Assembly (NCBI GenBank): GCA_003130875.1
Contig: QEXY01000043.1
Span: 19,141 to 83,140, forward strand
Source of the DNA: Ardenticatenia bacterium
GTDB taxonomy: Bacteria > Chloroflexota > Anaerolineae > 4572-78 > NAK82
Direction of reading: 5' to 3'
Length of the DNA stretch: 64,000 nt
The position numbers and the translations under genes were made by a program. Of this stretch, positions 23,981 through 27,955 are shown piece by piece; within the stretch, counting starts at the first letter, position 1; every line of letters begins with the position of its first letter. Below the pieces are notes generated by a model. That model searched no databases. It was not told the origin of the DNA and was given only the letters and a program-made list of their open reading frames with translations.

Positions 23981-24107
23981 ACGCTCAGCAACGTAGCAGA
24001 GCGAAGTGATCTGCGTAGGCGAAATGTGGAGGGTTTCTCACTATTGCTCTGATGCCAGATCATGCGGTTCCGGCGGCATCGGGATGGGATGAGAGGAGGT
24101 GCCAACT

Positions 24108-24833
24108 ATGCGGGATGTGGAGGAGCTCATCCAGCGAAGCAAACCGTTTCTGAGTTACCTGCTGCGGTGGCGACAGAACTTGCAGCCAGTGGCACTCAGC
24201 GCGTTAGTGCAGGACAGCCAGAGTCCCGATCAGGTGGCGCTTATGGCGGTGGATGTGATCAATGGCTTCTGTCACACGGGGCCTCTGGCGAGTTTGCGCG
24301 TGGCGGGCATTGTGGCGCCCATCGTGCTCCTGTTTCAGAACGCCTATGCCTTGGGCGTGCGCCATTTTATCTTTCTGCACGATGCCCATGACCCTCAGGC
24401 GGTCGAGTTCGACAGCTATCCAGCGCACTGTGTGCGCGGCAGTGAAGAGAGCGCGCCGGTGCCTGAGTTGAAGGCACTCCCTTTCTTCGATAAAGTGGTT
24501 ACGATGATACCCAAAAACTCGGTGAACGCGGCAGTGGGCACCGCGCTGAACGACTGGCTGGATGCGCATCCTGAGGTGCGCACGTTCATTGTGGTAGGCG
24601 ATTGTACCGACATTTGTGTTTACATGCTTGCCATGCACTTGCGCACGCGTGCCAACGCGGCCAATCGCACGGTACGGGTGATCGTGCCGGCCAACGCGGT
24701 AGACACCTATGACTTGCCGGTAGAGGCAGCGTCGCAGACAGGAGCACTTCCCCATGACGGGGAGCTGTTGCATCTCATATTCTTGTATCACATGCGTTTG
24801 AACGGCATTGAGGTGGTGGCAGCCATCGAATAG
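24108..24833 (+). CDS. isochorismatase-family cysteine hydrolase (nicotinamidase-like)
   Basis: 'ALMAVDVINGF', 'IPKNS' and 'IVVGDCTDICV' give the Asp/Lys/Cys triad pattern. ATG 24108 lies 8 nt after GAGAGGAGG. Confidence 0.8.
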   Translation: MRDVEELIQRSKPFLSYLLRWRQNLQPVALSALVQDSQSPDQVALMAVDVINGFCHTGPLASLRVAGIVAPIVLLFQNAYALGVRHFIFLHDAHDPQAVEFDSYPAHCVRGSEESAPVPELKALPFFDKVVTMIPKNSVNAAVGTALNDWLDAHPEVRTFIVVGDCTDICVYMLAMHLRTRANAANRTVRVIVPANAVDTYDLPVEAASQTGALPHDGELLHLIFLYHMRLNGIEVVAAIE

Positions 24834-24933: not shown

Positions 24934-26826
24934 TCACCAACGTGGCACGAAGCGAAGCGCATCAAAGGCGATCATACGGGTGCCGTAGAGTTCACGCGTG
25001 TTGTCGTACACCACCACAAACTCATTACCCATGGCAGCGAAGTAATACGTCCCCAAGCTTACCCATTGATCGTTGTACTGCCACTGGTTGATGATGCGGT
25101 CGTGGCGCTGGCCGGCGTGGATGATGCGATAGCGCACGCGCGTGCTGGTGGCAAACTCGCGCGGGATAAAGGCGAACACCTCGTAGTAACCGGGTGCCGC
25201 GAGACGCGGCACCCATTTGCCGAAGTTGACCGGATTGGTATAGCTGTTAAAGGTCCAATAGAGACTTCCACCGATTCCCAAATAGGCGATACGACGTGAG
25301 CCCAGCGGTCCTCCCCAGATGAAACCAGGGTCTGTGTTGTCCACCATGACCTCCACGCCGACGGGCGGTGGGTAGGGCGGGTAATAGGGTGGGTAGTAGG
25401 GGGGCACCGGAGTAGGCACCGGGGTAGGGAACACCGGGGGTGGTGCACCACCTGCGGTCCACCATACAGAGATCAGTGCGAACTGAGAACGCTCATAGTA
25501 GTCCACTTGCACGCGATGGGTGCCAATGTTAAGCGCTTTGACTCCGCAATGCACCGCCGCCGCCTGCTCGAACCACGAGTCGATCACCAGCGCGCCATCC
25601 ACGTACAGCCGCACGCCGTCGTCATGGCGGGCGCAGAAGGTGTAGGTACCATTGTCAAACCACACCTCGCGCGTCCATCGGATGGAGAAATCGTCTGCCG
25701 GCATGCCGGGAGCGGGTGGCCCCCAGCCCCAATCGAAATTGATTTCTGCATCGACGCGTGTCAGCACGGGAGGGCCGCCCAAGAAGGTATTATTGAAGTA
25801 CTCACCGTACCAGCCGGTCGCGGGCGGTGGCACCGGTGTCGGATATGGCCAGGGCCATGGAGGTGCTGGTGTAGGTGCCGGCGGAGGGGGAGGGGGCGGT
25901 GCCGGCGGCAGGGCACTGCCGGAGCTATAGGAGAAGACGATGATCGCATCGCCGCGTTTCTGCAGATAGGCCACCTGAACAGTGTGTCGCCCGGCTGTGA
26001 TATAGCGCGATGCGCAGAACGTGCGCACGCTCTGCTCGCGCCACTCATCCAGGATAAGCACGCCGTCCACCCACACGCGCACACCATCATCCACAGTGGC
26101 GCAGAAATTGTAGGTGCCCGCAGCGAAATTGATGTCGCGTGTCCAGCGCACCGAGTACTCGTAAGCAGGCAACCCAACGGCTGGCGAGTTGGTGCCCCAG
26201 TTGAAGTTGATCTGAGGATCCATGCGCACCATCACGGGCGGCTTGGCCGGCGAGACGCTGGCACCCAGCATCATGTCATCGTAGTACTCGCCGACCCAGG
26301 CCTCTGCCGGTGAGGGTGGCCACGGCACCGGCGGCCCGGGCGATGGCACCGGCGGCAGCGGGCCGCTCCACACCAGGCGGGCCATAGCATTGCCGGTGTC
26401 CTCGAAATAGGCCATCTGCAAGGTGTGGTTGCCTGCGGTCAGATAGGGGCTTGCGCAGTAGGTCACCGACGCACCGGTCACCCGCCACTGGTCGATAAGC
26501 AGCTGGCCATCCACCCAGAATCGCACCCCATCGTCCACTGTGGCACAGAAATTGTAAGTGCCAGCATTGAAGCTCATCGTGCGTGTCCAGCGCACGGAGA
26601 ACTGATCGATGGGCACTGCTGCACTGGGCGAACCTGTGCCCCACACGTAGTCAATGCTGGGCTCATAGCGGGTGAGGACAGGTGGCCCTGCCAGGCTGTG
26701 ATTGGCGAAATACTCGGCAAACCAGCCCGGGTCCTGAGCAGGTGGAGAGGCCATCACCGCTGCCGGCAACGTGTTCGCCAACAGTGCCAGAAGTACCACA
26801 AGCCATGTGAGTATGCGTTTCATCAT
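24934..26826 (-). CDS. secreted protein with three PA14 domains, Pro-rich linkers and a C-terminal golvesin-C-like beta-sandwich domain
   Basis: Signal peptide. Three ~125-aa repeats ('F.EY...P...R.D..I.F.WG...P......FSVRWTR...F.AGTY.FCA..DDGVR.WVDG') separated by PPxP linkers. Confidence 0.8.
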   Translation of the reverse strand: MMKRILTWLVVLLALLANTLPAAVMASPPAQDPGWFAEYFANHSLAGPPVLTRYEPSIDYVWGTGSPSAAVPIDQFSVRWTRTMSFNAGTYNFCATVDDGVRFWVDGQLLIDQWRVTGASVTYCASPYLTAGNHTLQMAYFEDTGNAMARLVWSGPLPPVPSPGPPVPWPPSPAEAWVGEYYDDMMLGASVSPAKPPVMVRMDPQINFNWGTNSPAVGLPAYEYSVRWTRDINFAAGTYNFCATVDDGVRVWVDGVLILDEWREQSVRTFCASRYITAGRHTVQVAYLQKRGDAIIVFSYSSGSALPPAPPPPPPPAPTPAPPWPWPYPTPVPPPATGWYGEYFNNTFLGGPPVLTRVDAEINFDWGWGPPAPGMPADDFSIRWTREVWFDNGTYTFCARHDDGVRLYVDGALVIDSWFEQAAAVHCGVKALNIGTHRVQVDYYERSQFALISVWWTAGGAPPPVFPTPVPTPVPPYYPPYYPPYPPPVGVEVMVDNTDPGFIWGGPLGSRRIAYLGIGGSLYWTFNSYTNPVNFGKWVPRLAAPGYYEVFAFIPREFATSTRVRYRIIHAGQRHDRIINQWQYNDQWVSLGTYYFAAMGNEFVVVYDNTRELYGTRMIAFDALRFVPRW

Positions 26827-26924
26827 TTCCCTCCTTCACTGGGAGTACTGAACGCCCGGTGGGCACACCCGGTTGAGACAGCGCAACATGTGTTCATCGC
26901 CACCGTTTCCTCTTGCCCACCCTT

Positions 26925-26953
26925 ACCATACCAATTCTTTAGCAATATGTCCA
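26925..26953 (-). promoter_or_regulatory. promoter TGGACA-17-TATGGT (TG-extended) for the PA14 gene
   Basis: Read on the minus strand. Lies ~100 nt upstream of ATG 26826 and downstream of the terminator at 26997-27032. Confidence 0.35.
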
Positions 26954-26995
26954 CTAATCATGATGCCAGACGCGCGCGTGTCACGCGCCTTTAGT

Positions 26996-27106
26996 CAAAA
27001 AAGCCCCCTTTCCTATTTGTGGGAGAAGGGGGATAGCCATTGGAATGTCAAAGAACCGTGTTTACGCCTTTCAATGGGCTGAAGCTAGATACTTCTTATG
27101 TCTAGC
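26996..27106 (-). ncRNA. candidate ~110-nt small RNA (own promoter, 5' hairpin, intrinsic terminator)
   Basis: Bounded by promoter 27113-27141 and terminator 26997-27032. 5' hairpin GCTAGA-11 nt-TCTAGC (27084-27106). No credible ORF. Confidence 0.4.
26997..27032 (-). terminator. rho-independent terminator (minus strand)
   Basis: Minus strand reads CCCCCTTCTCC-cacaaata-GGAAAGGGGG followed by CTTTTTTGA. The stem is about 10 bp with one bulge. Confidence 0.65.
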
Positions 27107-27112
27107 ATTCTC

Positions 27113-27141
27113 ATTATACATCACAATTTGGATTCATGCAA
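27113..27141 (-). promoter_or_regulatory. promoter TTGCAT-17-TATAAT (minus strand)
   Basis: Perfect -10 and exact 17-nt spacer, in an ORF-free AT-richer region. Confidence 0.5.
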
Positions 27142-27556
27142 TAGCTTGACCATAACTTTTTGGGTGTATTGAGGCGCAGAATGGACCAACCACTGCAATA
27201 CGACCTGCTGCGTTGCTCTTTCAGAAGAACCCCTCGCAATTTTAATGGCTATTTTAAGGTCTAAACAACCTGCTCACAACAAGGCAAGTGCTTATCCTTA
27301 CTCCCCAGTAACACGCAAAATGTTTCCGTGTTAGCCGTGATTTTTGCGGCTGCCCTCAAAGCTTTGGAGATTGTCCCTGTGGCGTTTGTCCTCAGAAATC
27401 CTGAACTCGCCTGGACATATTTTCCTTGCCAGCACGGATGGAATCCTGTCTAACTTGGGGTATCATGAGTTATAAGACGATCTGCCTTGCCTTGGCGGGG
27501 AGGATTTCAGTTTGTCGTAAGCAGCATTGCACAGGATCTTAAAGGAGGCAAGCGAG

Positions 27557-27955
27557 ATGAACAAGAGGCTGGTCGGTGTCGCGCTGGGTCTGGCCGTCTT
27601 CATCACCCTGCTGACGGTTGGCTGGGCGTTTGCGCAGGGGCCTTATTGGGGATATCCCTATGGGTATCCGTACTACGGGTATCCATACTACGGTTATCCC
27701 CAATATGTCTCCAACGTGCCCTATCGTTATCCCAATCTCACGGGCTCTTACGCCTATACCAACCCCTCTCTAGCGGGCGGTTACTATGGTGGCGTCCGTG
27801 GGGGGTTCTACAGCGGCCCCTACTATTGCTATCATGAACCCTACCGTGGGGTAGGGGTTGATGTGTACCGCTATGCCGGAGGCAACTACTTTTATAGGGG
27901 TTATCGTTATTCTGGATGCCCCGAAGTGGGAGGCTACTACTATCAAGTGCCCTGA
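27557..27955 (+). CDS. secreted Tyr/Gly/Pro-rich low-complexity protein
   Basis: AAAGGAGG RBS 7 nt upstream. Signal peptide 'MNKRLVGVALGLAVFITLLTVGWAFA'. The mature 106 aa contains 31 Tyr, with (GYPYY)3 encoded by 15-nt tandem repeats near 27649-27705. Confidence 0.7.
   Translation: MNKRLVGVALGLAVFITLLTVGWAFAQGPYWGYPYGYPYYGYPYYGYPQYVSNVPYRYPNLTGSYAYTNPSLAGGYYGGVRGGFYSGPYYCYHEPYRGVGVDVYRYAGGNYFYRGYRYSGCPEVGGYYYQVP

Follow-up and report, generated by a model that had tools for sequence, protein, structure and literature searches.

In lambdoid phages, the PR′-tR′ unit gives a promoter-proximal terminated transcript that is under antitermination control. The Listeria SAM (S-adenosylmethionine) riboswitch products SreA and SreB are terminated leaders that double as small RNAs (sRNAs). 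The sRNAs of the RsaE/RoxS type are Hfq-independent, occur in Gram-positive bacteria and carry pyrimidine-rich seeds. In the Shiga-toxin (Stx) phage, StxS, a short RNA that ends at a terminator close to its promoter, is reported to act as a regulatory sRNA (PMC7547250). The present work concerns a unit in a 64,000-nucleotide (nt) stretch of DNA from an Ardenticatenia bacterium of the Chloroflexota (contig QEXY01000043.1, positions 19,141 to 83,140; hereafter the window, to which all coordinates refer unless a locus is named). On the minus strand of the window, a promoter, P2, and an intrinsic terminator enclose what is predicted to be a ~110-nt non-coding RNA. The unit lies upstream of a gene on the same strand (24934–26826) that encodes a secreted protein of 630 residues, in which a Pfam scan identified three PA14 domains and one Golvesin_C domain; this gene is called the PA14 gene below. 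A literature search surfaced no regulatory RNA of this sort for the Chloroflexota and no described counterpart of the unit. Regulation by non-coding RNA and termination appears to be little studied in this phylum, the members of which are mostly uncultured.

We favor, at a probability of roughly one half, the reading that the unit acts as a leader of the PA14 gene in which transcription ends prematurely, setting free a discrete short RNA. P2 is, by homology, the ancestral sigma-A-type promoter of the gene family and is predicted to transcribe the ~110-nt RNA. Most P2 transcripts would stop at the terminator, with ends at 26997–27002, and be released as the short RNA, and the PA14 mRNA would come from polymerases passing the terminator. 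A second promoter-like site, P3, located between the terminator and the gene, may add to PA14 transcription in lineages like that of the window. The extent of read-through may be set by a trans-acting factor or by the efficiency of the terminator rather than by a metabolite-sensing RNA switch; such a switch is the less likely option, since neither a conserved mutually exclusive structure nor an aptamer-like fold was found. Candidate recognition elements for such a factor could be the hairpin with ACAUAA at the 5′ end of the RNA, a central motif of the RNA and the TTATG...CATAA repeats around P2. The released RNA may also act in trans.

The sequence-only reading of this DNA had placed a promoter, a 5′ hairpin, a terminator and a downstream promoter on the minus strand, and all four are found at the positions it gave. 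P2 (27113–27141) was read directly from the sequence as TTGCAT-17-TATAAT, with the −35 hexamer at 27141–27136 and the −10 hexamer at 27118–27113. The −10 matches the consensus at all six positions and the −35 matches TTGACA at three of six, which is why a consensus promoter scan did not list P2. The two tRNA genes of the window have the promoters TTGACA-17-TATAAT and TTGACG-17-TATACT. These are of the Escherichia coli type, indicating that this organism can suitably be judged by an E. coli-like consensus. The arrangement TTGCNN-17-TATAAT was present with identical spacing and a variable spacer sequence in all 11 loci that carry the unit (see below). The sequence TGTATAAT is kept in 12 of 13 aligned loci, and the remaining one, L025, has TATACAAT instead (L numbers denote individual loci). 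With hexamers within the 16–18 bp range, a conserved position and a variable spacer, P2 is a predicted sigma-70/sigma-A promoter.

The terminator occupies nt 26995–27032 of the minus strand. Its C/G-rich stem of 10 bp contains one bulge (CCCCCTT-C-TCC / GGA-AAGGGGG) and closes an 8-nt loop, after which CUUUUUUGA follows; in letters, the element reads CCCCCTTCTCC...GGAAAGGGGG and then CTTTTTTGA. A simple terminator scan missed the site because the stem is bulged. A scan for hairpins followed by T-runs recovered it with a hairpin of −14.5 kcal/mol and a tract of C plus U6. The element is one-directional, as the plus strand has no T-run. The last 45 nt of the RNA fold better than shuffled sequences in 11 of 11 loci (z from −1.9 to −4.4). 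A hairpin with U5–6 is present in 10 of them, and L019 has UUAUU. From the terminator to the start codon there are 150–210 nt. The hairpin-plus-T-run scan gave 12 sites on both strands of the 64 kb vs 6 in the reversed-sequence controls, and nt 26995–27032 is the best canonical one. This genome thus seems to use intrinsic termination sparingly, judging from the window. Since canonical terminators are scarce, the textbook example at 26995–27032 stands out. By its hairpin and U-tract it qualifies as an intrinsic (Rho-independent) terminator, at which transcript release is predicted. Right after the U-tract, nt 26966–26986 of the minus strand form another hairpin with a stem of only G and C (GCGCG-UGACA-CGCGC), which has no U-run of its own. 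L004 and L002 keep this hairpin, L005 and L015 have an altered form, and L003 lacks it.

The RNA between these two signals is predicted to span nt 26997–27106 of the minus strand, with the start placed from the −10 hexamer and the end from the U-tract. The ~110-nt anatomy of promoter, hairpin and terminator that the sequence-only reading had proposed is conserved, and the unit is 103–114 nt long across the 11 loci. In the fold of a 113-nt RNA, a middle helix lies between the 5′ hairpin and the terminator; the z of the whole RNA, −1.57, is not significant. The 5′ hairpin (27084–27106, minus strand), GCUAGA(C)...(A)UCUAGC, has 11 nt between GCTAGA and TCTAGC and includes the ACAUAA motif that is found throughout the family. 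Its stem is invariant in the closer relatives of the window, and in the more distant ones the homologous 5′ arm pairs with a different 3′ arm. The first 32 nt fold better than shuffled sequences in the window, in four of the five other loci of the close group and in L021. In L018, the 5′ stem and two pairs of the terminator survive only through G-U changes. As these changes keep the pairing on the minus strand only, they give weak but directional support for a constraint at the RNA level.

The middle segment of the RNA is no more structured than shuffled sequences, with z near 0 or positive in most loci. The sole conserved block between the hairpins in an alignment of 11 sequences is a 12-nt central motif (27045–27056, minus strand), GUUCUUUGACAU, with the consensus GYUCYUUKMCAU. 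Seven of its 12 positions are conserved and five vary among the 11 loci. It takes the form GCTCCTTTCCA in the far group, GCTCCTTGACAT in L018 and GCACTTTTCCAT in L024. Its mean unpaired probability is 0.41–0.78 vs 0.41–0.55 for the whole RNAs, so that the motif is moderately accessible. A stem between CCATTG (27077–27072) and CAATGG (27042–27037), suggested as possible earlier, did not hold up: the letters are present, but the helix appears only in the minimum-free-energy fold of the window, changes of the 3′ arm in the relatives are uncompensated, and RNAalifold drops it. RNAalifold of alignments of 5 and 6 close-group sequences kept the 5′ hairpin and the terminator and yielded 0 compensatory pairs; the covariation test that the sequence-only reading had proposed is thus negative in the close group. 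A sense leader peptide, MLDIRSI, was also rejected, as its start codon is not conserved (AUG/GUG is replaced by GCG in L015 and L018). In the modeled folds, the layout of the segments is that of a simple sRNA or leader and not of an aptamer.

The earlier statement that the RNA resembles no known family agrees with the Rfam results. At the gathering threshold, no match was found in the whole window or in the ten homologous loci. A scan of nt 26600–27600 at a permissive E-value returned only a chance match on the wrong strand, Hrs1, at 18.7 bits vs a gathering threshold of 56.4. By its sequence, the unit is a member of no described RNA family.

The search for homologues that had been recommended found the unit in 10 other distinct loci, which makes 11 with the window. 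All are metagenome-assembled genomes of the Anaerolineae/Ardenticatenia type or metagenome contigs, and the identity of their PA14 proteins to that of the window is 63–91%. The close group, L004, L002, L005, L003 and L015, has PA14 proteins that are 84–91% identical, and the whole unit is present. Its invariant sequences are TGTATAAT, GCTAGACATAA, GTTCYTTGACAT and CCCCCTTC...GGAAAGGGGGCTTTTT. The far group comprises L018, L019, L020, L021 and L024, with PA14 proteins of 63–76% identity. There the order of elements is TTATGSAAAGCTATTGCNN, 17 nt, TATAAT, a hairpin start that contains ACATAA, a variable body, the central motif, a hairpin with a C/U-rich 5′ arm, and U5. A covariance model matched L018 alone in the far group, at 32 bits; the group is too diverged.

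The conservation is confined to the unit. Between the far group and the window, the promoter is 66–70% identical vs about 50% for shuffled sequences (57% in L018, the exception), and the RNA is 54–61% identical vs 47–48%. The 135 nt upstream reach 49–52% vs 48–49% for shuffled sequences, and the stretch from the terminator to the ATG 51–54% vs about 50%. The promoter and the RNA are thus above, and the flanks at, the identity of shuffled sequences, showing that the unit is an island under selection. Each of the 10 other loci repeats the hexamer spacing, the 5′ and central motifs and the terminator, which is more than chance would produce.

In all 11 loci, the unit is upstream of, and co-oriented with, one orthologous gene with three PA14 domains and Golvesin_C. 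The neighbors on the other side differ: an open reading frame (ORF) rich in Tyr and Gly together with an FGGY kinase gene, a sigma-70 gene, tsaD, or the end of the contig. The long upstream intergenic region persists. When metagenomes were scanned with the 3′ half of the RNA, three true matches were obtained, all at the same PA14 gene in close lineages, along with three chance terminators. The covariance model found one copy in the window and none at the loci of PA14 paralogues, L007–L011 (35–40% identity).

The origin of P2 can be read from relatives of the gene that lack the terminator. Short-form loci with PA14 and Golvesin_C domains are L022 (54% identity), L025, L026 and L027 (52–53%, with two PA14 domains) and L029 (42%). 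L022, L025, L026 and L027 have TTATGCAAA...TGTATAAT and then ACATAA directly before the gene, and L029 has only TATAAT-ACATAA. In these five loci the 5′ untranslated region is 40–100 nt long and contains no terminator. Since the homologous promoter is directly before the gene in these relatives, P2 is the ancestral promoter of the gene, and the predicted start of the RNA is the ancestral 5′ end of the mRNA. In the window, the terminator stands between this promoter homologue and the gene on the same strand, the position expected of a terminated leader.

P3 (26925–26953, minus strand) was identified in a consensus promoter scan as TGGACA-17-TATGGT with a TG extension. In the window, a second TTATGGTAA element, now decayed, contains its −10, TATGGT. 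In L019, a complete second copy of P2 is located between the terminator and the gene (TTATGGTAA, 26 nt, TGTACAAT). The sequence-only reading had taken TGGACA-17-TATGGT as a plausible promoter of the PA14 gene itself. This stands for the clade of the window, in which P3 is conserved as TGGACA or TTGACA, 17 nt and TATGGT with the TG extension; it does not extend to the family as a whole. When one uniform rule was applied, P2 was found in 11 of 11 loci, and a consensus-like promoter from the terminator to the gene in 7 of 11, with none in L003, L018, L021 and L024. Judged by sequence alone, the better-conserved promoter is the distal one, separated from the gene by a conserved terminator, and some lineages have no other recognizable promoter.

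Whether the RNA is an independent transcript or a leader was the question that the sequence-only reading had left between two choices, with a preference for the former. The unit is indeed self-contained. Its independence is weakened by the linkage to a single gene, by the homology of the promoter and by the recognition of P3 in 7 of 11 loci only. The attenuator role for the PA14 gene that was named as the alternative is at least as likely as independence, given the gene linkage, the ancestral promoter and the missing P3 in 4 of 11 loci.

Several points weigh against the premature-termination leader. The distance of 150–210 nt from the terminator to the ATG is far for a classical attenuator. 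The clade of the window keeps a good promoter, P3, after the terminator, and L019 has a full second P2 there, so the PA14 gene may not need read-through. Folding of the RNAs of the 11 loci without the 3′ arm of the terminator shows no conserved antiterminator, and there are no compensatory base changes in the 5- and 6-sequence alignments. The absence of an antiterminator and of a leader ORF lowers the standing of a classical attenuator, not that of a factor-dependent read-through. The start site of P2, the efficiency of termination and the read-through are themselves all inferred from the sequence.

The rival that survives best is an independent trans-acting sRNA. Here the promoter of the PA14 gene would have been duplicated and one copy would now make only the ~110-nt RNA; the PA14 gene would be transcribed from P3, and the two neighbors would be co-regulated. 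We regard this as plausible, though less likely than the leader. The own promoter, the strong terminator, the constant length of 103–114 nt and the lack of a conserved ORF are in keeping with it, as is the arrangement, typical of sRNAs, in which a 5′ stem-loop and a terminator frame an unstructured middle. The conserved downstream promoter in the clade of the window and the full P2 duplicate in L019 would supply the gene with a promoter of its own. The Stx phage also provides a reported precedent for a regulatory sRNA terminated close to its promoter (PMC7547250). However, the metagenome and covariance scans never found the unit away from the PA14 gene, its promoter is that of the gene family itself, and 4 of 11 loci have no recognizable downstream promoter from which the gene could be transcribed.

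If the RNA were such an sRNA, it might act through GYUCYUUKMCAU, through the C/U-rich arm of the terminator, or through both, by base pairing or by protein binding. The 12-nt motif is kept while the rest of the body diverges. On the other hand, five of its 12 positions vary, its accessibility is no more than moderate, and the 64-kb window shows no enrichment of its complement (6 matches vs 7.3 expected). The duplex energies between the middle of the RNA and the region of the PA14 translation start are at the level of shuffled sequences in 9 of 11 loci.

An elaborated form of the premature-termination leader is a factor-dependent checkpoint of the processive antitermination type for the secreted lectin-like gene, with a regulator at the TTATG...CATAA repeats, at the ACAUAA hairpin or at both, and with the 110-nt RNA also acting in trans. 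We consider this full combination improbable. The DNA around P2 offers sites at which such a regulator could bind. An upstream promoter element, TTATGGTCAAGCTA (27142–27155, minus strand; consensus TTATGSnAAAGCTA), abuts the −35 on its 5′ side. All 11 loci of the long form have this element, and four of the short form (L022, L025, L026 and L027) have it as TTATGCAAA. In L020 and L021 it makes an inverted repeat with the ACATAA of the transcript start. TTATG...CATAA inverted repeats flank the core promoter at 27155–27095 of the minus strand in the window, at 2660–2735 in L020 and at 2640–2710 in L021. In the latter two loci the repeats are perfect 10-mers, ACATGTTATG and CATAACATGT, with centers 58 bp apart. 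The sequence TTATGCAA-N5-TTGCAT is a dyad that overlaps the −35. From their sequence and position, the TTATG...CATAA repeats look like operator sites for some regulator. The 17-nt form of the upstream motif from the far group had no other good match within the 64-kb window.

A metabolite or ion riboswitch, or a classical attenuator with alternating terminator and antiterminator for the PA14 gene, is highly unlikely. The leader position, the orientation and the intrinsic terminator at the end of the RNA are what such a device would show, and in L002, L005, L015 and L018, removal of the 3′ arm of the terminator leaves its 5′ arm able to pair with a GA-rich segment. Yet this antiterminator candidate is absent in the window, L003, L021 and L024, and elsewhere it lies at non-homologous positions. 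The region that would have to form the aptamer is variable and has z near 0 or positive, neither the window nor the ten homologous loci gave an Rfam match, and there is neither covariation nor a conserved leader peptide.

That the unit is a non-functional relic, made by promoter duplication together with a fortuitous hairpin and T-run, has equally little to recommend it. The signs of a tandem promoter duplication, of which L019 has a second copy and the window a decayed one, are compatible with a relic, and so is the lack of structural covariation. In a relic, though, one would not expect the upstream copy, the terminator and the length to persist in all 11 loci, at protein identities as low as 63%, next to intergenic DNA that has become randomized. 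Moreover, the stability of the terminator hairpin is significant throughout the 11 loci, and P2 is better conserved than the copy proximal to the gene.

Least credible of all, and judged spurious, is a small hydrophobic protein on the plus strand (34 residues, MSKNRVYAFQWAEARYFLCLAFSLYITIWIHAIA, 27045–27149, with the ATG at 27045, overlapping the RNA and the promoter) to which the minus-strand RNA would be antisense, as in a type I toxin-antitoxin system: an ATG-initiated ORF of 34–44 residues whose C-terminal half is hydrophobic is open in the window, L004, L002, L015 and L003, but it is shifted into stop codons in L005, absent or stopped early in L020, L021 and L024, and in another frame in L018, despite conserved nucleotide blocks, the variable columns by codon position are 10/17/13 of about 35 each, with no excess at the third position, the N-terminal half is unconserved, and the hydrophobic part is read from the promoter in reverse complement.

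The intergenic region that contains the unit is about 700 nt long and lies between divergent neighbors; the G+C content of the window is about 57%. Further upstream of P2, a conserved block (27251–27333, minus strand) consists of the palindrome TAACACG-N11-CGTGTTA, GGGGA, and then CCTTGTTGTGA-17-TAAAAT, a P1-like promoter. The P1-like site, TTGTGA-17-TAAAAT, has the same orientation as P2. In L018, L020 and L021, the spacing of its hexamers (TTGnnn / TAnAnT) is kept with a variable spacer sequence, and the palindrome hairpin is kept in place with different paired bases. Transcripts from the predicted P1-like site would cross P2 and run into the same terminator. A long inverted repeat, 27033–27046 / 27239–27252, was discarded, as it is not conserved in L004. 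A scan of viral contigs for a P2-type promoter gave 0 matches.

On the other side of the intergenic region, a divergent ORF of 142 residues (27527–27955, plus strand) encodes a signal peptide and a repetitive mature part extremely rich in Tyr, Gly and Pro (GYPYGYPYYGYPYYGYP...), for which there is no Pfam match. The close relatives L002–L005 share this ORF as conserved DNA, but it is missing from the equivalent position in L018, L020 and L021. The FGGY sugar kinase gene is located beyond it. Convergent to the PA14 gene is a gene of the isochorismatase family (24099–24833, plus strand), and the same is seen in L019, L020 and L022. Its convergent position in the window and in distant orthologous loci indicates that it is a stable downstream partner of the PA14 gene; the upstream neighbor varies. 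The close relatives of the PA14 protein are from Anaerolineae/Ardenticatenia metagenome-assembled genomes of the Chloroflexota. The protein is lectin-like and probably acts at the cell surface. The only public contig with an identical PA14 protein is the Joint Genome Institute (JGI) contig Ga0401068_004299 (L001), which ends about 530 nt upstream of the gene. At this end, at the TAACACG palindrome, there is an inverted duplication of 24 nt (1–24), which is probably an assembly artefact at a hairpin.

The locus is a comparatively well-supported candidate, with predicted ends, a conserved motif, 11 natural variants and a link to a secreted lectin-like protein. If the read-through is regulated, it would show how these organisms switch on the PA14/Golvesin_C protein. 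Were the RNA to act in trans, it would open a way into the sRNA biology of the Chloroflexota. Should the antitermination checkpoint and the trans-acting RNA both be true, the RNA would be among the first regulatory small RNAs described in this phylum. Neither outcome would overturn concepts, as there are well-known examples of both terminated leaders and promoter-proximal sRNAs in other organisms, and nothing mechanistically unexpected has been seen so far.

Compared with the RsaE/RoxS type, the PA14 unit has a similar length of ~100 nt, a 5′ stem-loop, an unstructured C/U-rich motif and a terminator with a C-rich 5′ arm. The far-group form of the motif, CUCCUUUCC, resembles an anti-Shine-Dalgarno sequence. 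In contrast, the motif in the clade of the window, UUCUUUGACAU, is not anti-Shine-Dalgarno, and its pairing with the PA14 ribosome-binding site is no better than chance. The unit also shows no similarity to these RNAs by sequence or model, and it is strictly tied to one gene. The likeness to SreA and SreB is in the position: the unit forms a 5′ leader that ends at an intrinsic terminator, co-oriented with and upstream of a gene, and its product could act in trans. The difference is that it has no conserved aptamer, antiterminator or Rfam match, and that the terminator is 150–210 nt from the start codon.

The PA14 unit differs from the phage systems in its setting. It has no phage context and no Q-like gene nearby, and its neighbors are cellular; it precedes a single secreted lectin-like gene, and in most loci a second promoter follows the terminator. 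Like PR′-tR′ and StxS, it combines a conserved promoter with a strong intrinsic terminator within ~100–200 nt, an arrangement in which the short RNA would be the default product and expression of the gene would need read-through. As at a phage late promoter, no alternative RNA fold is evident in the unit, which points to a factor-dependent read-through. By this analogy, the described system whose logic appears closest to that of the PA14 unit is the phage late promoter with a terminator a short distance downstream.

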